Positions 22,102 through 33,268 of a stretch of 64,000 nucleotides of DNA are shown one piece after another. The stretch is from contig NC_008278.1 in the NCBI RefSeq assembly GCF_000058485.1, positions 550,962 to 614,961 on the forward strand, written 5' to 3'. Each line of letters starts with the position of its first letter. The stretch's first letter is position 1. Below the pieces are notes generated by a model. That model saw only the letters and a program-made list of their open reading frames with translations, searched no databases and was not told where the DNA came from. A program made the position numbers and the translations under genes. This DNA comes from Frankia alni ACN14a (GTDB taxonomy: Bacteria > Actinomycetota > Actinomycetes > Frankiales > Frankiaceae).

Positions 22102-23445
22102 ATGGCGCAGATCGGCGGTATCACGGTGAGCGGACCATCCGAAAACGGCGATGCGGCGGCGATGGCCGCCCCTGCGACCCGACCCTCCGCGGAGGGTCGG
22201 CCGGCGGGGGTGGTGTCGGCGGTCGAGCGGCTCGGCGACGGCGGGGCGCCCGACCGCGGCGGACCGGTGATCGACGGCGTCGCGGTGGAGGAGGCCGCGA
22301 CCGCGGCCCTGCTCGCCGGGGCCGCGTCGCGGCAGCCGGCGACCCGTCGTGGATCGGCGCTGCTGCTGTCCGGCTCGCTGGGCATGGGGCACGACGTCAT
22401 GGCCGAGGCGTGCGGGGCGTCGCTGACCCGGCGAGGGTTCACCGCCCGGACCGCCGACAGCCTGCGCATGCTCGGCGGGCGCAACGGCTCCCGCGGGGAG
22501 AAGGTCTTCCGCGGGATGATCGCCGTGCCGGGCCTGTACGACGCCGTGCACTTCTCCCAGATGCGCACCGGCGGCCGGCTGGCCCTGGCGATCGAGCGGG
22601 CGTCGAGCCGCTACGTCGTCCCCGCGCTGCGTCAGGAGCTCACCGAGCAACCGACCGATCTGGTCATCTCCATCTTCGCCACCGGCGCCGCAGCGACCAG
22701 CCGGGTCAAGCCGGAGTTTCCCGGCCTGGTCACCGCGGTGTTCTCCACCGACTGCTGCGTGCACCGGCTGTGGGTGCACGACAACACCGACCTGTACCTG
22801 GTCACCTCGCAGACCGCCGCCCGCTACGTGCGGCGGTTCGCGCCGAACGCGCTCGTCTCGGTCGTGCCCACCCCGGTGCGCGAGCCGTTCTACGACCCGC
22901 CCACCCAGGAGGAGGCGCGCGCGGCACTCGGCATCCCGGCCGACGCTCCGTGCGTGCTGCTGATGTCCGGCTCCTGGGGACTCGGGCCGCTGGTCGAGGG
23001 CGCCGCGGCGATGGCGGCGGCGGGGATCTACGTGCTCGCGGTGGCCGGGCGGAACAAGCCGCTGGCGGCGCGGCTGACCGCCCTGGCCGAGCGGCAGCAC
23101 AAGGTCATCCCGTTCGGCTTCACCGACCGCATCCCGGCGCTGATGGCCGCCAGCGACCTGGTCGTCACCTCCTCCGGGGACACCTGCAGCGAGGCGCGGG
23201 TGATCGGCCGGGACCTGCTGCTCATCGACGTCGTGCCGGGGCACGGCCGCGACAACCTGCAGAAGGAGCTCGAACGCGGGCACGCCGAGGTCACCAACAC
23301 CGACCCGGTGTCGCTGACCCGCTCCGCGCTGGCCTGCCTCGACCGGGTCAAGCCCCCCTCGGACCGGGTGGCGATCGGGCCGCAGGCGTGGGAGCAGGCG
23401 TTCGGTTCGGCCCTGGCGCAGATCGGCTTCGGTGCCCACTGGTGA
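22102..23445 (+). CDS. MGDG-synthase-like / GT28 (MurG-like) glycosyltransferase with low-complexity N-terminal extension
   Basis: LLLSGSLGMGHDV N-domain motif and a C-terminal GT-B half (LLMSGSWG, FGFTDRIPALMAASDLVVTSSG). The ATG is 3 nt after the epimerase stop. Confidence 0.65.
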   Translation: MAQIGGITVSGPSENGDAAAMAAPATRPSAEGRPAGVVSAVERLGDGGAPDRGGPVIDGVAVEEAATAALLAGAASRQPATRRGSALLLSGSLGMGHDVMAEACGASLTRRGFTARTADSLRMLGGRNGSRGEKVFRGMIAVPGLYDAVHFSQMRTGGRLALAIERASSRYVVPALRQELTEQPTDLVISIFATGAAATSRVKPEFPGLVTAVFSTDCCVHRLWVHDNTDLYLVTSQTAARYVRRFAPNALVSVVPTPVREPFYDPPTQEEARAALGIPADAPCVLLMSGSWGLGPLVEGAAAMAAAGIYVLAVAGRNKPLAARLTALAERQHKVIPFGFTDRIPALMAASDLVVTSSGDTCSEARVIGRDLLLIDVVPGHGRDNLQKELERGHAEVTNTDPVSLTRSALACLDRVKPPSDRVAIGPQAWEQAFGSALAQIGFGAHW

Positions 23446-23684
23446 TGCGCTGCCCACGCGTCGGCGCTGGAACGGATCGGCGGCGGGCGGGTACTCGTCC
23501 AGCCCGGGACGTTCCACGCGGCCCGCGGTGTTGACCCCGTCAGACGTTGTCGTCCCGGGTGTGGGCACGGGGCGGCGGGGGACGAGTGAGGCGGCCAGCG
23601 CATGGGCAGGGCAGGGGGATCCCGCCATGATCGGCGGAATCCGGGCGCGACCGACGGCACGCCCGTGACCAGGATGGCGCGCGT

Positions 23685-24944
23685 ATGAGCAAGGCGTTGG
23701 CGCTCGGCCTGCCCACCGCGATGGTGTCGGCCGCGCTGTACGGGGTCGCGCCGCTGGTGCAGGCGCGGGCCGCCCGGCGCGAGGAGGAGAGTTCCGGCCT
23801 GGGGCTGGGCCTGCTGGCGCGGCTGGTGCTGCGCCCGCTCTGGCTGCTCGGGCTCGCCGTCGAGGCGACGTCGTTCCTGCTGGAGGTCTACGCCCTGTCG
23901 GTCGCGCCGGTGGCGATGGTCGCCCCGGTGATGGCGCTCGACATGATCATATTCACGTTGCTGGCCCAGCGGGTGCTCGGTGAACGGATCAGTCTGACCG
24001 GCTGGCTGGGCGTCGGCTCGATGGTCGCCGGGGTCGGCCTGCTCGCCTACGCCTTCGCCAGCCGCGCCGAGGTCGGCAGCGCGGCCAGCACGGACGTCCT
24101 GCTGGCCTTCCTCGTCCTCGGCCTGGTCTTCGCGCTGGTGTGCGCGTTCCTCGCGAATGTCGCCGCCGCCCGGAGCATGATTGCCGGGGCGGCGTTCGGA
24201 TTCGGCGCGGCCGCCGGCGTCTGCTATGCGATCGCCACCCTCGCCACCCGGCAGATCGGCCTGGCGGTCAACGATCGCCGCGAGGGCCAGTCCGCGCTGG
24301 CCGACCTGCTCACCACCCCGACGCCGTACGTCCTCGTGCTGTTCTCCGTGCTGGCGCTCGGTCTACAGCAGCGTGGGCTGCAGGGCCGGGCGGCGGTGAT
24401 CGCATTCCCCGTGACCAGCGGGGTGTCCGCCTTCCTGCCGGTCACCCTGGGGCTGACCCTGTTCGGTGAGCCGGCCCCGGACGGCGCCCAGCGGGTGGCG
24501 TTCGTCGTCGCGATGGTGATGGTGGCCGCCGGCATCGCCGCACTGGGGCGCGACCGGATGGCGGCCAACCGTTCCGTGGACGAGCTGGAGGGCGCCGCGG
24601 CACGCCCCGCCGACGGGCCGGGTTCGGGTCGGCCGGATCCAGATCGGCCGGGTTCGGGTCGGCCGGACGTGGATCGGCCGGACGCGGGTCGGCCGGATGT
24701 GGGTCGGCCGGATTCACGGCGGGCCGATTCTGACGGGCTGGATCCGGCCGAGCGGCTGGACCCGGAGCGGCTGGACTCCGAGCCGCTGGACTCGGGACGC
24801 ATGGATCTGGAACGGGTGGATCTCGGGCGCTCCGAGCGGGTGGACTCCGACCTCGGGCGGCGTACCCGCCACGGCGACGACCCGTGGAACCCGCCGGGGC
24901 GGGGAGACGGTGGGCCCGGCGCCGCGCTGCGGGAGTTCGGCTGA
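23685..24944 (+). CDS. EamA/DMT-superfamily membrane protein (ArnE/ArnF-like duplicated 4-TM halves) with GRPD-repeat C-terminal tail
   Basis: About 290 aa of TM helices are followed by about 120 aa of (P/D)GRPD repeats. Confidence 0.55.
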   Translation: MSKALALGLPTAMVSAALYGVAPLVQARAARREEESSGLGLGLLARLVLRPLWLLGLAVEATSFLLEVYALSVAPVAMVAPVMALDMIIFTLLAQRVLGERISLTGWLGVGSMVAGVGLLAYAFASRAEVGSAASTDVLLAFLVLGLVFALVCAFLANVAAARSMIAGAAFGFGAAAGVCYAIATLATRQIGLAVNDRREGQSALADLLTTPTPYVLVLFSVLALGLQQRGLQGRAAVIAFPVTSGVSAFLPVTLGLTLFGEPAPDGAQRVAFVVAMVMVAAGIAALGRDRMAANRSVDELEGAAARPADGPGSGRPDPDRPGSGRPDVDRPDAGRPDVGRPDSRRADSDGLDPAERLDPERLDSEPLDSGRMDLERVDLGRSERVDSDLGRRTRHGDDPWNPPGRGDGGPGAALREFG

Positions 24945-25147
24945 GCCGCTGGGGTGTGCGGCCCGGGCGACTAACCGTCATCAAGGGCGCGGACCGGCAC
25001 GGTCGTTAACCCTGACGGCAAGAGCCCGAACTTATAGTGACGCGGCATGTGCTTTCGGTGAGATAGTCGAGGTGGCCGGCCGCCCGGGTTCACCCCCCGA
25101 TCGCCCGGGCGCCCGGCCGTCTCCCGCCCGCGGCCACCACTGCCCGC

Positions 25148-25999
25148 TCAGGGTAGCCGCGGGACGGGCCGAAGCATCGCGGGATGCAGCACCGTGGCGT
25201 CGCCCCGGCGGTACAGCTCCGCGGGCCGGCCTCCGTCTCGGCTCGTGAAGCGCCCGGTCGGGACGAGAAAGCCCGCGGTCCCGGTCACCTTGCGGTGGAA
25301 GTTGCGGGGGTCCAGCCGTGAGTTCCAGACCAGCTCGTAGATCCGGCGCAGCTCCGCCACCGTGAACTCGTCCTCGCAGAAGGCCGCCGCCGCCGCACTG
25401 TACTCGATCTTCGCCCGGGCGCGTTCCAGCCCGTCCGCGAGGATCGCCGCATGGTCGAAGGCCAGCCGGGACCCGCAGCCCTGGGTCGAGACCGGCTCCC
25501 AGCGGCTCGCGGCGGCGTCCGTGCCGGCGATCGGCGTACGCGACTGCGGCGCGAGCGCCAGGAACGCCACCGTGACAACCCGGCCGCGGGGATCGCGATC
25601 CGGCGCGCCGTAGGTCGCGAGCTGTTCGAGATGTGCCGGGGGGTGGCGCAGCCCGGTCTCCTCGGCGAGTTCCCGCACGGCCGCCGCGGCGAGGTCCTCG
25701 CCCGGCCGGACGAAGCCGCCGGGCAGGGCCCATCGGTCCCGGTAGGGCTCGATCCCGCGGCGCACCAGCAGCACCTGGAGCTGCTCCTCGCGGACGGTCA
25801 GCAGGACCAGATCGACGCTGAGCGCCACCGGCACGACCTCCGCCGGCAGCCCGCCCGCCCCGCCGCCGGCGTGGGTGTCTGCGTCGGCGTGGGTGTCGGC
25901 GTGGGCGTCGGTGTCGGGGCCGGGGTCGGGGTGGTCGTGGGCGGTCGTGGCGGCGGACGACTCCGGTGGGGACGGCATGCGGGGAACCCTACTCGTCAT
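25148..25999 (-). CDS. Nudix hydrolase fused to NrtR-like C-terminal winged-helix domain
   Basis: Intact Nudix box GGFVRPGEDLAAAAVRELAEETG. The C-terminal FTVAELRRIYELVWNSRLDPRNFHRKV resembles NrtR DNA-binding domains. The N-terminus is His/Asp-rich and repetitive. Confidence 0.6.
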   Translation of the reverse strand: MTSRVPRMPSPPESSAATTAHDHPDPGPDTDAHADTHADADTHAGGGAGGLPAEVVPVALSVDLVLLTVREEQLQVLLVRRGIEPYRDRWALPGGFVRPGEDLAAAAVRELAEETGLRHPPAHLEQLATYGAPDRDPRGRVVTVAFLALAPQSRTPIAGTDAAASRWEPVSTQGCGSRLAFDHAAILADGLERARAKIEYSAAAAAFCEDEFTVAELRRIYELVWNSRLDPRNFHRKVTGTAGFLVPTGRFTSRDGGRPAELYRRGDATVLHPAMLRPVPRLP

Positions 26000-26044
26000 G
26001 TTGACGAGAACCGCGATCCCGGATTATCGTCAAATCGACGATAA
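25992..26044. promoter_or_regulatory. two perfect palindromes in the divergent NrtR-like/SPFH promoter (candidate NrtR operators)
   Basis: CTCGTCA-TGT-TGACGAG at 25992-26008 and TTATCGTC-AAATC-GACGATAA at 26024-26044, both read directly. They share a TCGTC/GACGA core. Confidence 0.5.
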
Positions 26045-26059
26045 AGAGAGGACCTTCCC

Positions 26060-27100
26060 ATGGCGGACATCAGCCGGGCGCCGTTCCTGTGCCACCTGCG
26101 GGGCACCCCCACCGCGTACATCCGCCACCAGCGCGGCACAGCCGTCGCCCACGAGGGCGTCGGCCTGGTCTTCTGGTATCGGCCGCGCACGGCGGTGATC
26201 AGCGAGGTGCCGGTCGACGACCGGGAGCTCGCGGTGCTCTTCCACGCGCGGACCGCCGACTTCCAGGACGTCGCGGTGCAGGCCACCGTCACCTACCGGA
26301 TCGCCGACCCGGTGCTGGCCGCCACCCGCCTCGACTTCGGCATCGACCCCGAGCTCGGGACCTGGCGGGAGAAGCCCCTCGACCAGCTCGCCGGGATGAT
26401 CAATGAGTCGGCCCAGGAGTACGCCTCGGACCTGCTCGCCCGCACGTCGCTCACCACCGCGCTCGCCGAGGGGGTGCCGGTCATCCGCGAACGGGTGACC
26501 ACCGGTCTGCGCGGCGACGCCCGCCTGGTCCAGACGGGGGTGAGCGTGGTCGGCGTCCGCGTGGTCGCCGTCCGCCCGGCGCCGGAGGTGGAGAAGGCGC
26601 TGCGCACGCCCACCCGTGAGCAGATCCAGACCGAGGCCGACCGGGCCACCTATGGCCGCCGCGCGCTCGCCGTCGAGCAGGAGCGGCGCATCGCCGAGAA
26701 CGAACTGCAGAGCAAGATCGAGCTGGCCGTGCGCGCGGAGCGGCTCGTGACCCAGGAGGGAGCCAACGAGCAGCGCCGGATGACCGAGCAGGCAGCCGCG
26801 GCGCGCATCGCCGCCGCGGCGGAGGCGGAGCGGGCGCAGACGGCCGCCCGCTCGCAGGCCGAGCGGGTTCGGGTGGAGGCGGCAGCGCAGGCCGAGGCCC
26901 TCCGCCTGGTCGGACAGGCCGAGGCCGACGCCGAGGCGGCCCGGGTCGCCGCGGTCACCGGTCTGGACAGCTCGGCGGTGGTCGCGCTGGCGGTGCGCGA
27001 CCTGGCCGACCATCTGCCCGCGATCGGGGCGCTCACCATCACCCCCGATGTGGTCACCGAGGCGGTCGCCCGGTTCGTCCGCGCCGGCACCCCGCGGTGA
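26060..27100 (+). CDS. SPFH/band-7 family protein
   Basis: SPFH core followed by an A/E/R-rich coiled coil. AGAGAGGA RBS. Confidence 0.7.
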
Positions 27101-28020
27101 GCCTCGCCCCGCGCGCGGTGCTTGTGCACCGGCGTACCGAGTACGCCGAGCTGATGGACCGGCACGGCACCCGCGGCCAGGCCGCGTTCTTCCTGGCCAC
27201 CCGCGGACGAGAGCTGGCCGAGGTGCAGGCCGCCCACGACGGCGCCGAGGCGGCCAGGCGGGTGGTCGCCGCGGCGATCCCGCCGCACTGGCGTCGCGGC
27301 GAGGTGGAGCGGACCGACCTCGACCGGTTCCTGTTCGCTCCGGATGACGTGGTCGTCTGCGTCGGGCAGGACGGGCTCGTCGCGAACGTCGCGAAGTACC
27401 TCGACGGGCAGCTCGTCCTGGGGATCAACGCCGAACCCGCCCGCACGCCGGGTGTCCTGGTCCGGCACACCCCGGGTGAGGCCGCCGCCCTGCTGCGCAC
27501 CGTCGAGGGATCTCCCACGGACCCCGCTCGGGGGCTTGGCCGCCTGCTGCGCGAACTGACCATGGTCGAGGCCCGCTCCGACGACGGCCAGCGCCTCGTC
27601 GCGCTGAACGAGATCTACGTCGGCCACCCCGGTCACCAGACCGCCCGGTACCGGCTGCGGGTCCCCGGCGAGGGCGTCCCGGTGACCGAGCGGCAGGCGT
27701 CGTCCGGACTGCTGGTCGGCACCGGCACCGGGGCGACGGGCTGGTGCCGCTCGGTCTGGGCGCAGCGGCGCAGCGAGCTTCCGCTACCGGCGCCGACCGC
27801 CGGCGCCCTGGCCTGGTTCGTCCGCGAGGCGTGGCCGTCACCGGCCACGGGCACCGCCTGCACCGAGGGCCGCCTCACCGGGCCGGCGCGACTGGAGGTC
27901 CTGGTGGAGGCTGATCGGATGGTCGTGTTCGGCGACGGCATCGAGGCGGACACGATCGAGCTGTCCTGGGGGCAGCAGCTCACCGTCGGCGTGGCCGACC
28001 GCCGCCTGCGCCTCGCCTAG
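27097..28020 (+). CDS. diverged ATP-NAD kinase (NadK/DAGK_cat superfamily)-like protein
   Basis: GQDGL replaces the canonical GGDGT. The NE motif is [15 protein letters not shown] replaces TGSTAY. GTG start overlaps the SPFH stop (GTGA). Confidence 0.5.
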
Positions 28021-28046
28021 CAAGCACCCTGCCTGCCGCGCCTCTC

Positions 28047-28158
28047 GGGCTACGCGCCCTGCCGGCTACGCGCCCTGCCGGCTACGCGCCTTACCGGCTA
28101 CGCGCCTTGCCTGCCGCGCTTTATTCGGGCTGCGTCCCTCGCCGGCTGCGTCCCTCGG
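28047..28158. repeat. intergenic tandem repeats (about 16 nt gctacgcgccctgccg x4, then ggctgcgtccctcg x2)
   Basis: Direct reading immediately after the NadK-like stop. Confidence 0.8.
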
Positions 28159-28286
28159 TGGTCAGCCGCGGCGGCGAGCCCGCCGGCCTGGCCGGGAGGT
28201 CCAGGGCCGGCCAGGCCGGCGCACCGCGCCGGTCGCGGAGGGGCCGGGCGGCGGACGGCGCCGCCCGCCCGGCCTGGGCCTGCCCA

Positions 28287-28616
28287 TCACACTCCGAAGC
28301 GTTCGAGAGCCTTGCTTACCCGAAGATTTGCCTGCGCAAAGGTGATCTTCCCGTCCACGTACGCCGACAGCGCCGCGCGCCGAACACGTTCGACGCGCTG
28401 ATCTTTCATCGGGGTGTTGAGCAGGTTGGTCGTGGCGGTGGCCACGGCAATCACCTCCCAGTGGCAGGGGAACAGGATGGTGCTACGCGGGTGGATCTCG
28501 GAGTCGTGCCCGTGGCCGGGGATCCGTCGGGGACGTCGATGCCCGGCGGATCCAGAGGCGGACCGACCGTGATCGAAGGTGCGGGGGTGCCCGGCGCGCG
28601 GGCGGGAGCGCCGTTC
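28287..28616 (-). pseudogene. decayed C-terminal remnant of a metallophosphoesterase-like gene (open frame with GHxH motif, no usable start; terminal 40-aa ORF MKDQRVERV...)
   Basis: The minus frame has high GC3 and reads ...RIPGHGHDSEIHPRSTILFPCHWEVIAVATATTNLLNTPMKDQRVERVRRAALSAYVDGKITFAQANLRVSKALERFGV*. An in-frame TGA lies at 28617-28619 and no start codon follows before the internal Met. Base composition is lower GC than the flanks. Confidence 0.25.
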
Positions 28617-29399
28617 TCAGCTAGGACGGCGACGGGATGGCGGCACCGCCGGCCACCGAGCCTGCCCGAGGCCCGCCTGCCGGCGGGCGACAACACGCGG
28701 TTATGCGGACCGAGGCCGTAGGCGCGGCCTGGTGGCCGCCGGGGTCGAGCGCCGCCGGCAGCACGGTCACCCGGACCGTGGCGTTGCGGCGCCGTACGCG
28801 GGTAGCCGCACCGTCAAAAATGATCACAACGACTGCCCTCCTCCGCGTTGGGCGGGCATTCGCAGCCCGCGTGGCCCGTCCAGTGGGCGAAGGTGGCCGA
28901 GCGCCGTCCCATGCCGCCACGGCGCCGGGAGCGTCCGGTCCGCCTGCCCACCCTGCGAGATGGACGCTGCGGACGTCGTGCCCCGGAAATGCCACGACCA
29001 CAACGGGACGAACACTTGAACAACGAGGACCGACTGAACATCTACAAGAGTGCGCGACCGGGGGGCGTTGCGCAAGAGCCAACCGGCATGTCGAGCGGTC
29101 GCCACCGCACCGTCATGACAGGCACCTCGACCCGGTCGGGGCGGGAACGTCGACGTTGATCGGATCGTTCTGCCCCCTCGACCCGGTGGCCGTTCCCGGC
29201 CCGGCGGTCCCCGACCGGCCCGGGCGACTCCGGTGGAGGCGTCCGGGCCGGAGCCGGCGCTGTCGGGCGCAGGGAAGCACAGGCACGGGCCAGGCCGGTC
29301 TCGCCGGCCGCTTCGCCGTCAGGGCTCTGGCCGGTCCGGGTCCGCGTGAGTCCCGAGTCGGACCGGGCTGGGTCGGCCGGGTGAGCCGGGCCGGGTGGT

Positions 29400-29642
29400 T
29401 CAGGCCTGGCCCACCCGGGTGCGGTCGAACTCGCCGTCCCGCGCGCCGGCCAGGAAGGCGTCCCACTCGGCCGCGGAGAAGGCGAGCACGGGACCGCTGG
29501 GGTTCTTCGAGTCACGCACCACGATGCCCTCGCCCAGGGGAGCGACCTCCACGCACATGCCACCCGCTCCGTTGCTGTAGCTGCTCTTGCGCCAGGCCAG
29601 CTCGGCGGGACCGCCCAGATCGGGCTTCGCAAATCTGGTCAT
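29400..29642 (-). CDS. DUF397 domain protein
   Basis: WRKSSYSNGAGGMCVEVA signature. Overlaps the upstream XRE gene by 4 nt. Confidence 0.8.
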   Translation of the reverse strand: MTRFAKPDLGGPAELAWRKSSYSNGAGGMCVEVAPLGEGIVVRDSKNPSGPVLAFSAAEWDAFLAGARDGEFDRTRVGQA

Positions 29643-30500
29643 CTTAGTTCCTTTACGACGGAAAGTATCATCTGTGTGGATTCTTCCGGCCGCAGGGCGG
29701 CGGCCAGAAGGTGATTCATCTTCAACTTATAGCGCCGGACTTCGGCGGCACGCTCGATGTAAAGGCTGCCTGCCGCCTCTTCTATATAGACCACTTCGTG
29801 GTCTTCCGAATCGGGGAATCCGAGTATGGAGAATGCGCTGCCCAGGCCGGCGTGTGCGCCCACGGCGAACGGCAGGACCTGGATCGTCACATTCGGGAGT
29901 TCGGACCGTTTGGCGAGGAAATCGAGCTGATCGCGCATGACCGCCCGACCGCCGATCTCCCGACGCAGGACCGCCTCGTCCAGAACCACCCAGAGCCGGG
30001 GATGGTCGGGGGCGGTGAGCCGGCGCTGCCGGTCCATCCGCAGGGCGATCTTGCGTTCGACCTCCTCGTCGTCGGCCTCCGGGTCATCGGCCCGGATGAC
30101 CTGCCGGGCGTAGTCTCCGGTCTGGAGCAGCCCGTGGACGAGCTGGGGCTCGTACACCTGGATCGATGCCGCGTCACCCTCCAGGCCGATGTAGATCTCG
30201 AACCAGGCCGGGACGACGTCGTGGTAGGAGTGCCACCAGCCGTGACGGCGGGACTCCCGAGCCAGCGCCATCAGCGCGTCGCGCCGCTCACCCTCCGTGA
30301 CGCCATACAGGTTGAGCAGGTCCGACACGTCGCGAGTGCGTACCGGCACCCGCCCGTTCTCCATGCGGCTGACCTTGGAGACCGAGCAGCGCAGCAGTTG
30401 GCACACCTCGTCGACCGAGACGTCCGCCGCCTCTCGCAGTCGCCGTAACTCGGCACCCAGCCGCCGCCGCCGCACAGTCGGACCGCCGCTCGTGGCCATC
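29639..30500 (-). CDS. XRE-family HTH regulator with DUF5753 domain (partner of DUF397)
   Basis: HTH LGAELRRLREAADVSVDEVCQLLRCSVSKVSRMENG. The start was reassigned to MATSGG (ATG at 30498-30500, AAGGA RBS). Confidence 0.7.
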
Positions 30501-30716
30501 GCTAGTCCTTCGGTCTGCTGGGAGTGATGAGTGCATCCTGCCACTGGATCGCCACTCCTCATACACAGTGCACAGCTCTGGGTAGCAAAACTGTTACAGA
30601 AGCTCTTGCAGGCGGTCGAGGCGGGGGCCATGCTTCGAGTCTTGGTTTACTTTGAGTGGCGAACTCAACCCTCTGGGTGAGAACTTGGTATGGTGAGGAA
30701 TCACGGGGAGTAGTCA

Positions 30717-31433
30717 ATGGCGATCGTGTGGGGTCCGAGGCGTCGGTCCGGCAACCGTGCCGGAACGACTGGCTGGGCGGCATCGGTCCTGCCGCACGCC
30801 CCCGACACTCTCGCCACCTCCGCACCTCTGTCCGCCCCTGCCGTCCTGTCCTTCCCGTCCGTTCCGGACGTTCGGATCGCCACCACAACGACCACGGCGT
30901 GGGCGGCCATCGTGAGGGCTGCGGCCACCTGGTCGGCGACGAGTCGGTCCACGACGGCGCGGCACGTCGGCGTGCTGGCCTGGGGCGACGGGGGCGGCCG
31001 TCGACCGCCGGCTCCGGGCGGGTGGACATCGAGCCCCGTCCGGAGCCGGCCAACCCACCGTCGCGGGCCGGACCGACGCCTCTGCGGGCGTGACCGCGCA
31101 CCGGGGACAGCTCCACGGCTCTCATTATTCGGCAATTGGCTGAAAGGCGTGACAATGGCGACTCGCCGATTCCAGGTCTACGACGGAGATGGCGAACTGG
31201 TGGCCACCTTCCTGGAGTGGGAGGCGGCGCACTCCTGGGCACATCGCCGCGCCGGCGAGGCAGGAACCCGAAACCCGGTTCAGGTCGAGGACCGGGTCGA
31301 GCGGCGGACCTGGACGATCGATGCCGATCAATGCCGGCTCACAGTGTGGCGGCGCCGCGTGGAATACGGATACTGCGGTCGGCCGGAGGCGCGTCCCGTC
31401 GGCGCCGGCCGTAAGCACGTCTACGTCTCCTGA
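30717..31433 (+). CDS. hypothetical protein (S/T/P/R-rich N-terminal half, conserved-looking C-terminal about 90 aa; alternative start ATG 31155)
   Basis: GC3 is about 85 % throughout this frame. GGGGAG lies 10 nt upstream of ATG 30717, and AAAGG lies upstream of ATG 31155. No recognisable domain. Confidence 0.3.
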   Translation: MAIVWGPRRRSGNRAGTTGWAASVLPHAPDTLATSAPLSAPAVLSFPSVPDVRIATTTTTAWAAIVRAAATWSATSRSTTARHVGVLAWGDGGGRRPPAPGGWTSSPVRSRPTHRRGPDRRLCGRDRAPGTAPRLSLFGNWLKGVTMATRRFQVYDGDGELVATFLEWEAAHSWAHRRAGEAGTRNPVQVEDRVERRTWTIDADQCRLTVWRRRVEYGYCGRPEARPVGAGRKHVYVS

Positions 31434-32581
31434 ACGGGCCGGGCGGTCGCGATGCCGGGGTGTCCGGTGCTGGCGCCGGTGTCCTGGCCGTCGGCGGCAT
31501 AGGCCGGCTGCCGGACGCCCGCGCGCAGGGCCTCGAAGATGGCCACACCCTGCCCGACAAGTCCACTGGCGATCTCACCGATGCCCTCGGCGCCGTTGAG
31601 CACCGTGACGTTCGCGCCCGCCAGCCCTGAGGCCGCCTGCCGGACGATCTCCGGGAGCTGGTCGATGAGCATCCGGTCGAGAGCAACCCGGTTGTGCGAC
31701 GCGGCGGCCTCGGCCTGGATCCTCATCTTCTCGGCCTCGGCGAGGGCGAGGACGCGAACCCGCTCGGCCTCCGCCTCCGCGGGCTTGACGACCTCGGTGA
31801 CGAGTTGCTGCTGGCGCAGCTGAGCCTCCCGTTCGGCCAGCTCGGTCCGGGCCGCGGTCACCGCGACCTCCGCCTGGGCCTGCGCAAGCGGTCCGGCCTG
31901 CGCGGCCTCGGCCTGGGCTCGGTCGATCTCCGCCCGGTACTGGGCCTGGACGATGGAGGTCTGCCGGGCGTACTCCGCCTGCGCCCGCTGCGAGCGCTGC
32001 TCGGCCTCGGCGGCGGCCTGGTTGGCCTCGGCCTGGGCGATCTGCGCCTGGCGCTGGATGGCGGCGTTGTGCGGCGCCGCGATCGCCGCGATGTAGCCGA
32101 GTCTGCCGTCGTCGATGGACTGGATCTGCAACGCGTCGACGGTCAGCCCGATCCGGGCCATCTCCGCCTTCGACCCGTCGAGTACCTCGGTGGCGAGTTT
32201 CTGCCGGTCACGGATGATCTCCTCGACCGTCATCGAGCCGATGATCGAACGCAGGTGGCCGGAGAAGATCCGCCCGGTCAGCACGGCCATCTGGCCCTGG
32301 TCGGACAGGAAGCGCTGGCCGGCGTTGACGATGCTCTCGCTGTCGTTGCCCACCTTGAAGGCGATCACGGCGCGGACGTTCAGGGAGATTCCCTGGTGAG
32401 TGACGCACGTCTCCGTGACCTCGGCCTCGCACATCGCCAGGGTCAGGAAGCGGACCTTGCGGAAGAACGGCAGAATGAATCCGCCGTGACCGGTGATCAC
32501 CTTGAAAGGCATCCCACCGCGGTTCTTCCCGCCCGAGATCAGCATCGCCTGGTCGGGTGCGGGGACTCGGTAACCAAACAC
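31421..32581 (-). CDS. flotillin-like SPFH protein (YqiK/FloT-like)
   Basis: SPFH domain followed by a long AQAEA coiled coil. GTG start. Confidence 0.7.
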   Translation of the reverse strand: MFGYRVPAPDQAMLISGGKNRGGMPFKVITGHGGFILPFFRKVRFLTLAMCEAEVTETCVTHQGISLNVRAVIAFKVGNDSESIVNAGQRFLSDQGQMAVLTGRIFSGHLRSIIGSMTVEEIIRDRQKLATEVLDGSKAEMARIGLTVDALQIQSIDDGRLGYIAAIAAPHNAAIQRQAQIAQAEANQAAAEAEQRSQRAQAEYARQTSIVQAQYRAEIDRAQAEAAQAGPLAQAQAEVAVTAARTELAEREAQLRQQQLVTEVVKPAEAEAERVRVLALAEAEKMRIQAEAAASHNRVALDRMLIDQLPEIVRQAASGLAGANVTVLNGAEGIGEIASGLVGQGVAIFEALRAGVRQPAYAADGQDTGASTGHPGIATARPVQET

Positions 32582-32596
32582 GCCGTGAACCTTTCG

Positions 32597-32836
32597 TCAG
32601 AGATCGCCGCCGAAGACGGCGGCGGGATCCAGCCACGGCACCACCTCGACGGTCCGAGGCCCGCGCGTTCCGATGACCAGCACGGAGGCGCCCTTGGGCA
32701 GCGGAGTGTCGGACAGGGCGAGGAAAGTCTCGATTCCGCCGCGTACCCGCACCACCACCTCGCCCGGCCCGGCGTCGCCCCGAGTGCCCACGATGAGCGC
32801 GCCGACGCGGCCGATGACGGACGGATCGCCCACCAT
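32597..32836 (-). CDS. NfeD-like OB-fold protein (short form)
   Basis: 79 aa (MVGDPSVIGRVGALIVGTRG...GEVVVRVRGGIETFLALSD...GASVLVIGTRGPRTVEVVP). Strong GAGGAGGAGG RBS. Lies immediately upstream of the flotillin gene. Confidence 0.55.
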   Translation of the reverse strand: MVGDPSVIGRVGALIVGTRGDAGPGEVVVRVRGGIETFLALSDTPLPKGASVLVIGTRGPRTVEVVPWLDPAAVFGGDL

Positions 32837-33268
32837 CCTCGAACCTCCTCCTCGCACGCGGGGCGCGGAAGGCCATGGCTGAACGGTCGTTGCAGGCGAG
32901 AAGAGACTACAAGTCGCCATCCTTGGGATCAGGAGCTTGTCGCTGTCGCCTTCTGTATTGACCAGACGCTGGTCGTCTGGAGCAGTCCGGTCCACGCTGA
33001 CCGCATCTCCGTCAGCCGCTGACGGCCGGACCGGCCGGTTCTGGCGCTCGTCGGCCCGGCTCGAACCGGCGCCGGTAGGCGGTCGGCGTGAGGCCGGTGC
33101 GTCGACGCAGAGCGACCCGTAGACCCGCGGCGGTCCCGAGACCACTGGCCCGGGCCACGAGATCGAGGCGTTGTTCCCCCCGTTCGAGCAGCCGGCAGGC
33201 CAAGGTGACCCGTTCGGCGGTCAGCCACGTGGAAGCGACAACAGGGCACGCCCCCATCTGAATCGGTC

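Follow-up and report, generated by a model that had tools for sequence, protein, structure and literature searches.

The 64,000-nucleotide stretch of the Frankia alni ACN14a genome analysed here (contig NC_008278.1, forward-strand positions 550,962 to 614,961; called the window below, position 1 being its first letter) carries a regulator gene, nrtR, that diverges from a gene pair, nrtX-nrtY, encoding an SPFH-domain protein and a protein with the fold of nicotinamide adenine dinucleotide (NAD) kinases. We consider it probable that this nrtR2<>nrtX-nrtY divergon is a branch of the regulon for homeostasis of NAD and adenosine diphosphate ribose (ADP-ribose), in which an NrtR switch would control an NADK2-type kinase together with its SPFH partner; the regulatory half of this reading we regard as highly probable. 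It builds on the identities and folds of the gene products, the position and conservation of the operators and the linkage of the genes, all of which were established in the present analysis.

The regulon itself has been predicted before. Rodionov et al. 2008 (NAR 36:2047, PMC2330246) list in their Table 1 'nrtR2<#>nrtX-nrtY' for Frankia alni and Kineococcus, in group Actinobacteria-2b and with the pathway entered as '?'; '#nrtR2; #nrtX-nrtY' for Streptomyces, where the units are unlinked and nrtR2 has its own predicted site; and 'Proteus mirabilis: nrtR<#>nrtX-nrtY', with Hahella also named for an nrtX-nrtY regulon. The first-pass annotation of this DNA had stated that the set is 'not a described NAD module', which is incorrect for the regulon and correct for its function, given in the 2008 table as unknown. 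That interpretation was right on the switch, wrong in taking the module to be undescribed and too pessimistic on the kinase. The assignment of nrtX to the SPFH gene and of nrtY to the kinase-like gene is indirect and is confirmed, at the level of sequence comparison, by the gene arrangements found here, which reproduce the three of Table 1; on the Proteus mirabilis chromosome (locus L090), for instance, NrtR on the minus strand diverges from the SPFH and kinase-like genes. A literature search turned up neither later work on nrtX or nrtY nor any paper that connects SPFH proteins with NrtR or with NAD kinase. New with respect to 2008 are the SPFH and NADK2-type assignments, the overlap of operators and promoter, the fixed spacing of the two sites and the breadth of the linkage. 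As the switch is already known from the 2008 prediction, the value of the system lies in the biochemistry of the widespread NrtX-NrtY pair.

The open reading frames originally proposed were recovered with the same coordinates: a Nudix frame at 25148-25999 on the minus strand, the SPFH gene nrtX (26060..27100, plus strand, 346 amino acids) and the kinase-like gene nrtY (27097..28020, plus strand, 307 amino acids, GTG start), whose start overlaps the nrtX stop by the four nucleotides GTGA, as had been noted. The Nudix gene is divergent from the SPFH gene, also as described, but the gap between them is not 60 bp. The ATG at 25999, to which the open frame extends, was rejected as the nrtR start, its codon being CAG in F. 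torreyi and F. gtarii; F. gtarii also has a 1-nt deletion between the equivalent of this codon and the next ATG. The ATG at 25978 (Met8) is kept across the compared Frankia, and the public annotation of an identical contig gives nrtR 276 amino acids with the same start. The gene (nrtR2 type, N-terminal Nudix and C-terminal NrtR winged-helix domains) is thus placed at 25148..25978 on the minus strand, the true gap is 81 bp, and operator 1 described below lies upstream of the nrtR coding region and not within it. The SPFH protein of the window is 100% identical to a 'MULTISPECIES: Frankia' protein, and its kinase-like protein 94% identical to that of F. torreyi. In the 5' part of nrtR (25864-25953), hexamer and 18-mer tandem repeats of CGGCGT type give NrtR a low-complexity N-terminal tail rich in His, Ala, Asp and Thr; the window strain has a 60-nt in-frame insertion there relative to F. 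torreyi and F. gtarii, and the length of the tail differs among close relatives.

Two predicted NrtR operators with the GT-N7-AC core were located in the intergenic region by inverted-repeat and consensus searches. Operator 1, TACTCGTCATGTTGACGAGAA, lies at 25990..26010, and its right half contains the -35 box of nrtX. Operator 2, TTATCGTCAAATCGACGATAA, at 26024..26044, contains the -10 box in its left half and is an exact match to the family consensus. Two perfect palindromes 15 bp apart had been described at first pass; the distance is correct, and the word perfect is justified for the arms, which are 100% complementary (7-bp arms at 25992-25998 and 26002-26008 around a 3-nt centre, 8-bp arms at 26024-26031 and 26037-26044 around a 5-nt centre), and not for the centres. 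According to the published description, NrtR sites are 21-bp palindromes with a conserved GT-N7-AC core. The window sites fit this rule, with TTATCGTC-N5-GACGATAA occurring twice, each time over 21 bp with the GT-N7-AC core, across the -35 and -10 boxes. When the 64-kb window was searched with TTATCGTCN5GACGATAA, allowing up to 3 mismatches, the two 21-mers were the only matches; the chance expectation is 0.02, and none of 100 shuffles reached two.

For orthologous loci the 130 nt upstream of the SPFH start were compared in 81 regions (80 fetched loci and the window). Both operators were present in 79 of them, Streptomyces and Kitasatospora included, which bears out the expected conservation of the palindromes upstream of orthologues. 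The consensus is TTnTCGTCnnCTTGACGAnAA for site 1 and TTATCGTCnnnnTGACGAnAA for site 2, and the start-to-start distance was 33 or 34 bp in 74 of the 79 loci. Site 1 has CTTGAC and site 2 has TA..T as near-invariant positions that palindromic symmetry does not account for; they correspond to a -35 box and an actinobacterial -10 box. In line with this, a consensus promoter scan of 25900-28300 returned a single site (mean of the shuffles 0.0), the predicted nrtX-nrtY promoter at 26001..26030 on the plus strand, with TTGACG and TATCGT separated by an 18-nt spacer. Because the operators overlap these boxes, a protein on either of them would block RNA polymerase. On the minus strand, TAGGGT at 25986..25991, read from the sequence as a possible -10 box, precedes the ATG at 25978 by 7 nt and would fit a leaderless nrtR mRNA; TAGAGT is found at the equivalent place relative to the nrtR start in the Kribbella loci. 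An Aeromicrobium metagenome-assembled genome (MAG; L062) provides the only actinobacterial locus with neither operator upstream of the SPFH-kinase pair.

It could be argued that the palindromes are bound by another regulator, or are chance or structural repeats, with the Nudix gene a mere neighbour, and the loci of Streptomyces and Kitasatospora lend themselves to this argument: nrtR is absent from the flanks of every one of them, and both operators are still there. However, the sites obey the NrtR rule for length and core, are kept in nearly all loci compared and co-vary with the NrtR clade across phyla. The orthologous operons of Proteus mirabilis and Acinetobacter have two to three tandem palindromes of another type, TAGTGTC-N5-GACACTA, around TTGACA, so operator and regulator clade change together. 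The unlinked Streptomyces nrtR2 listed with a predicted site of its own in the 2008 table also speaks against a foreign regulator, and we find that explanation extremely unlikely.

The regulator matches Pfam NUDIX (PF00293, 1.2e-20, residues 66-170) and, in its C-terminal part, NrtR_WHD (PF21906, 4.8e-13), and both of its domains are covered by alignments with the NrtR crystallised from S. oneidensis (3GZ5, 1.1e-29) and with Bacteroides AraR, all of which is in agreement with the NrtR-like C-terminus suggested earlier. Its score against the NCBIfam equivalog NF050029 is 133 bits, where the cut-off is 400, and judged by these profiles it is a member of the family and not an equivalog of the subgroup modelled by NF050029. 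The Nudix box GX5EX7REUXEEXGU is intact (GFVRPGEDLAAAAVRELAEETGL), as the first reading of an REx2EE box had it, and is so in 30 of 30 actinobacterial orthologues listed, while the proteobacterial and clostridial NrtRs of the compared set have RKLKEK, RVLKEK or RELRSE in place of the intact motif. Rodionov et al. 2008 (PMC2330246) describe a correlation between an intact Nudix box and real ADP-ribose pyrophosphatase activity. Since the box is intact in the actinobacterial regulators, an NrtR of this type may also hydrolyse its own effector. In published in vitro work NrtR came off its DNA in the presence of ADP-ribose or phospho-ADP-ribose. The effect of ADP-ribose is known for the Shewanella, Synechocystis and M. 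smegmatis proteins, and the mycobacterial NrtR (M. smegmatis MSMEG_3198) is an ADP-ribose-sensitive auto-repressor.

The pairing of the SPFH and kinase genes, seen first in the window alone, is real and very conserved. The first set of loci (n = 86; 80 genomic loci encoding a kinase-like homologue and 6 from exact-protein look-ups) has, in 83 of 83 loci with enough sequence, the SPFH gene as the direct upstream neighbour of the kinase gene, and the second, more distant set (n = 88; 80 metagenome loci, whose identity to the first query, the distant member P0277, is 43-54%, together with loci of Pontibacter, Lachnospiraceae, Verrucomicrobiota, Proteus, Rhizobium and Acinetobacter) has an SPFH gene next to the kinase gene in 81 of 81 loci with room for it. 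The pairing thereby spans at least five phyla, and the 4-nt stop/start overlap is kept in most actinobacterial loci. In Frankia, Nocardioides, Kribbella, Klenkia, Blastococcus and Acidimicrobiia the regulator gene and the pair point away from each other; in the second set nrtR is adjacent in 45 of the 59 loci with adequate flanks, downstream on the same strand in 20, upstream on the same strand in 17 and divergent in 8. No gene beyond those for SPFH, kinase and NrtR is generally conserved nearby in either set. Short-chain dehydrogenase genes recur, at varying positions on either side of the pair, and were rejected as partners, and a large Streptomyces 'cluster' of neighbours proved to be an antisense artefact combined with genus synteny.

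The less frequent neighbours are informative as to pathway. Quinolinate synthase (nadA, PF02445, 1.9e-107) is an operon mate in 7 loci, a NAMPT/NadV gene stands between nrtR and the SPFH gene in L142, and the N-terminus of PncB follows the kinase gene in L100. In L094 (metagenome contig ERZ25067825, 196-4918) the order is NrtR-NADAR-Macro-SPFH-PARG-NrtY in a single-strand operon; in no other locus do the SPFH and kinase genes stand apart, and here they are found among genes for ADP-ribose-removing enzymes. These operon mates, from NAD synthesis and from ADP-ribose turnover, indicate that the pair belongs with NAD supply and ADP-ribose turnover.

Some single loci are worth recording in their own right. 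In L127 (3955-5001) a 349-residue protein with NAD_kinase_C and a MarR-type winged helix is encoded directly upstream of SPFH-NrtY and may be an NAD-kinase-derived transcription factor standing in for NrtR. In a Lachnospiraceae MAG (L088, 3208-3750), a gene for an energy-coupling factor (ECF) transporter S-component just upstream of SPFH-NrtY-NrtR on the same strand could, as part of the same regulon, serve niacin or vitamin uptake. The Proteus mirabilis nrtR<>nrtX-nrtY genes lie directly beside the tetracycline efflux gene tet(J) (L090, 5635-6828), and the nrtR-nrtX-nrtY module of Acinetobacter lwoffii plasmid pALWED1.1 beside tetR(H)-tet(H) (L092, 5927-7841). A Moraxella plasmid has a similar kinase copy, with E-value and bit score equal to those of the Acinetobacter match, and mobilisation of the tet(H) region may have taken the module along.

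Given that the chemistry of NAD and ADP-ribose is central to many defence systems, the pair might belong to an NAD-depletion system that is directed against phages or related to toxins, or might counteract such a system. A gene for a RES-domain toxin comes after the pair in L123, L093 has genes for a phage integrase and a deaminase nearby, and the module is found on large plasmids. A PADLOC scan, however, gave no match for the SPFH protein or the kinase and only a weak Nudix match of the regulator to the candidate PDC-S07 (8e-6), and tblastn found no homologue in 50,697 phage records. With 60-65% identity, the Frankia and Streptomyces kinases show a housekeeping-like conservation, each fetched locus has one copy of the pair, and the flanking genes vary and belong mostly to ordinary metabolism. 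A defence role thus appears quite improbable to us.

NrtY had been described as an NAD-kinase-fold protein in which GGDG has become GQDG and TGSTAY has become TGATGW. The fold and both motifs were found as reported (VGQDGLV and GTGTGATGW). In Pfam NrtY has no match, the gathering scores of PF01513 and PF20143 not being reached; 11 of 49 family members match PF01513 weakly (best 1.7e-4), the NCBIfam NAD-kinase matches are likewise weak (4.7e-5), and database annotations of the family vary between 'sugar kinase', 'NAD(+)/NADH kinase' and 'hypothetical'. The family nevertheless is, from its sequences, compact and slowly evolving, with more than 7,900 clusters at 90% identity, Streptomyces proteins 60-66% identical to that of Frankia and, at 50% clustering, 195 representatives below 1e-30. 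It occurs in Actinomycetota, in alpha-, beta- and gamma-proteobacteria, and in Bacteroidota, Firmicutes, Verrucomicrobiota and Spirochaetes.

The AlphaFold2 (AF2) model of NrtY (predicted local distance difference test score, pLDDT, 95.6; predicted template modelling score, pTM, 0.90) was compared with the PDB by Foldseek. The top match is human NADK2 (7R4L, E 3e-19, template modelling (TM) score 0.68), and the top 50 matches are all NAD kinases, on which ground an affinity to diacylglycerol or sphingosine kinases was rejected. Normalised to the query, the TM-score is 0.68-0.69 for the NADK2 chains 7R4J/K/L/M versus 0.53-0.63 for classical NadKs. A profile of 49 NrtY members points the same way, matching NADK2 at 3.5e-23 over positions 5-237 and the best classical bacterial NadK at 5.9e-9, with the others ranging to 6e-4. 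NrtY therefore does not align as a canonical NadK, the possibility left open at first pass; it is closer to NADK2 by profile and by fold, and GGDG is absent from it.

Residue conservation was followed in the 49 family members, with identity down to about 31%, and the NADK2 residues of Du et al. were mapped onto NrtY through the profile alignment, their roles in NADK2 being taken from the same work. The catalytic Asp of NADK2 (D161) corresponds to D92, present in 48 of 49 members; the diphosphate-contacting K76 to R12, with Arg or Lys in 47 of 49; and W319, which stacks on the nicotinamide, to W216, present in all 49. S306 corresponds to S203, likewise invariant. H191, which stacks on the adenine, is replaced by Val (V120). 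The residues Ser306 and Trp319, in place of Asp-189 and Tyr-202 of PpnK, define the C5orf33 clade according to Ohashi et al., and the 13-residue spacing between S203 and W216 is identical to that in NADK2. TGATGW consequently identifies the NADK2/C5orf33 clade and is no decayed TGSTAY, and instead of the classical NadK/PpnK signature residues NrtY has Ser203, Thr214 and Trp216. Invariant positions of the family are N171, S202, S203, G204, W216, R243, E244, D280 and G281. In the NE/D motif the invariant N171 is followed by Glu in 33 and Asp in 16 members. The GGDG of classical NadK reads GQDG in the window, and its second residue in the family is Gln in 34 members, Pro in 8, Arg in 4, Leu in 1 and His in 1, never Gly. 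NADK2 motif 1, PX-GXN(T/S)DP, has a similar, not identical, counterpart in the actinobacterial (A1) consensus PVIGIDPDP and in LVLGINAEP of the window, position 111 being Asn in 38 and Asp in 11 of the 49 members, and the two NADK2 insertions of about 38 and about 32 residues (the dimer-building additional region of C5orf33) are without counterpart in the NrtY profile. A literature search for bacterial NADK2 homologues gave nothing relevant.

On these data NrtY is no decayed NadK and is a member of a strongly conserved NADK2-type family. That NrtY is a pseudo-enzyme had been raised at first pass; it would then act as a ligand sensor or as a structural partner of an SPFH assembly without catalysis, which would be compatible with the broken GGDG and with the failure to reach the Pfam NAD_kinase threshold. 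It is very unlikely in our view, because the catalytic Asp and nearly all substrate-contact positions are kept down to about 31% identity, and dead enzymes usually lose exactly such residues. The same conservation argues for an active enzyme on an NAD-like substrate.

Whether that substrate is NAD(H) itself we judge to be about evenly balanced. The main rival is a kinase for ADP-ribose or a derivative (free ADP-ribose, O-acetyl-ADP-ribose or nicotinic acid adenine dinucleotide, NaAD), in an operon that detoxifies or recycles ADP-ribose released by ADP-ribosyl-removing enzymes. The operon of L094 speaks for this rival, the nrtX-nrtY genes would themselves be switched on by ADP-ribose if NrtR behaves as its characterised relatives do, and phospho-ADP-ribose is an NrtR effector in vitro too; the GxDG change and the replacement of H191 by Val suggest, moreover, a remodelled pocket. 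An invariant nicotinamide-stacking Trp is, however, hard to explain for a substrate without that ring, and ADP-ribose-processing neighbours are found in one of about 170 loci versus NAD synthesis genes in nine. We regard an ADP-ribose kinase as unlikely and prefer NAD(H).

NrtX matches Pfam Band_7 (PF01145, 9e-14). The AF2 model (pLDDT 80) has an SPFH domain, one continuous helix at 175-299 (about 125 residues) and a small C-terminal part. By fold it matches ring- and cage-forming SPFH proteins, namely HflK/C, stomatin, prohibitin, erlin, QmcA, the major vault protein (MVP) and flotillin. The earlier label of a membrane scaffold is not supported, as NrtX has no transmembrane segment or N-terminal hairpin. 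Averaged over 19 residues, Kyte-Doolittle hydropathy peaks at 1.5, in an Ala-rich segment towards the C-terminus (294-312), and the N-terminus, MADI(T/S)R..RHLR, is polar and conserved from Met1. There is also no NfeD or protease partner in the operon, kinase and NrtR being the sole conserved neighbours in 174 loci. From the model, an oligomeric ring or cage of NrtX would be a better-founded expectation than a membrane scaffold. Neighbouring SPFH domains of the human vault form between them a pocket that binds NAD+, ADP and possibly ADP-ribose, beside the NAD-using PARP4. One may speculate that NrtX is a soluble SPFH cage that binds NAD(H) or ADP-ribose or houses NrtY, like the vault shoulder, and that the NrtY family is at the same time the stock of mitochondrial NADK2 and plant NADK3; we consider this combined proposal rather doubtful. 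Its second part would rest on the presence of NrtY in alphaproteobacteria such as Rhizobium with the shared Ser/Trp signature and N-terminal helical stretch. In Nocardioides aurantiacus (L004, 4985-6004) the SPFH gene is interrupted 39 codons in, either by a frameshift or through an error of sequencing.

A mechanism may be proposed as follows. Dimers of NrtR would sit on both 21-bp operators, which are spaced by 34 bp, cover the -35 and -10 boxes of nrtX and lie just upstream of nrtR, and both units would be repressed. When NAD is consumed, free ADP-ribose or a relative such as 2'-phospho-ADP-ribose would accumulate and bind to the Nudix domain, NrtR would leave the DNA, and nrtX and nrtY would be co-translated in fixed proportion by way of their overlapping stop and start. 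NrtY, as an active kinase of the NADK2/NADK3 branch, would most likely phosphorylate the adenosine 2'-OH of NAD(H); NrtX would most likely form a ring or cage and be an obligate partner of the kinase, as scaffold, container or regulator; and NrtR may remove its effector by hydrolysis. Repression and the ADP-ribose signal are here modelled on other NrtR proteins, and what the kinase acts on and what its SPFH partner does we infer.

Several points weigh against this proposal. No member of the family has the second Gly of GGDG, which could change the phosphoryl donor or the chemistry, and the adenine-stacking His of NADK2 is Val in NrtY. The induction of an NAD-consuming kinase during NAD depletion is not obviously adaptive, and the single Macro/PARG/NADAR operon points to ADP-ribose itself as a possible substrate. 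Fourteen second-set loci with adequate flanks have no nrtR nearby, the flanks of another 29 being too short to tell. The contact between NrtX and NrtY is putative, and the activities of the nrtR2-type NrtR, of NrtX and of NrtY are predictions from sequence.

To our knowledge, NAD kinase is taken to be the only way to NADP, and bacteria are generally credited with just one NadK. NrtY would be a second, strongly conserved enzyme of NAD-kinase type in bacteria, presumably acting beside the essential NadK, with human NADK2, the loss of which causes disease, as its nearest characterised relative; the family may help to explain where NADK2 came from. Knowledge of the NrtY substrate would fill a gap in the NrtR regulon that dates from 2008, and work on NrtY could show how cells respond to NAD consumption. 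If NrtY is indeed a client of NrtX, it would be the first enzymatic client of a bacterial SPFH assembly besides proteases.

The surroundings of the locus in the window can be described briefly. The approximately 1.4 kb 3' of nrtY (28021-29400) contain no convincing open reading frame and no Rfam match, and the identical public contig is annotated there with one 52-residue gene only; an Rfam scan of 23000-33000 matched no family. A terminator-like site at 27172 is not credible, lying inside nrtY. At 29400-30631 on the minus strand a DUF397 small protein adjoins an HTH_31/DUF5753 regulator, a common actinomycete pair unconnected to nrtR-nrtX-nrtY. A second SPFH protein, of flotillin type (Band_7 and Flot domains), is encoded 3.4 kb downstream at 31421-32581 on the minus strand and belongs to a sequence class unrelated to NrtX.

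The system can in several respects be compared to known ones. With the characterised regulators S. oneidensis SO1979 (prs-nadV, tandem sites), Synechocystis Slr1690 and M. smegmatis MSMEG_3198 (nadABC), the window NrtR shares the architecture of Nudix domain and winged helix, and the loci share palindromic operators at promoters, tandem sites and a divergent, auto-regulated layout; release by ADP-ribose, shown for those proteins, would apply to the window NrtR by analogy. The operator half-sites differ (TTATCGTC-N5-GACGATAA here, GTTTTCGA-N7-TCGAAAAC in mycobacteria), the Nudix box is intact here and degenerate in the characterised NrtRs, which have no hydrolase activity, and the target genes here, unlike theirs, are not NAD biosynthesis genes. 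NrtY resembles NADK2 (C5orf33) and plant NADK3 in the Ser/Trp signature, the N-terminal helical stretch, the NE motif and the catalytic Asp, and differs from NADK2 by the two missing insertions, by GxDG for GGDG and Val for H191, and by its SPFH partner and NrtR control. Classical NadK/PpnK (PF01513 and PF20143) has the same two-domain fold, with the Asp of GxDG, the NE/D motif and the Gly-rich loop co-located, whereas Asp-189 and Tyr-202 are replaced by Ser and Trp in NrtY and the profile match is weak. NrtX, finally, has the SPFH domain and very long helix of HflK/C-FtsH, QmcA-YbbJ, stomatin, prohibitin, flotillin and the MVP shoulder, and is set apart from the cage-forming SPFH proteins by having no membrane anchor and no NfeD or protease partner, its partner being a kinase.

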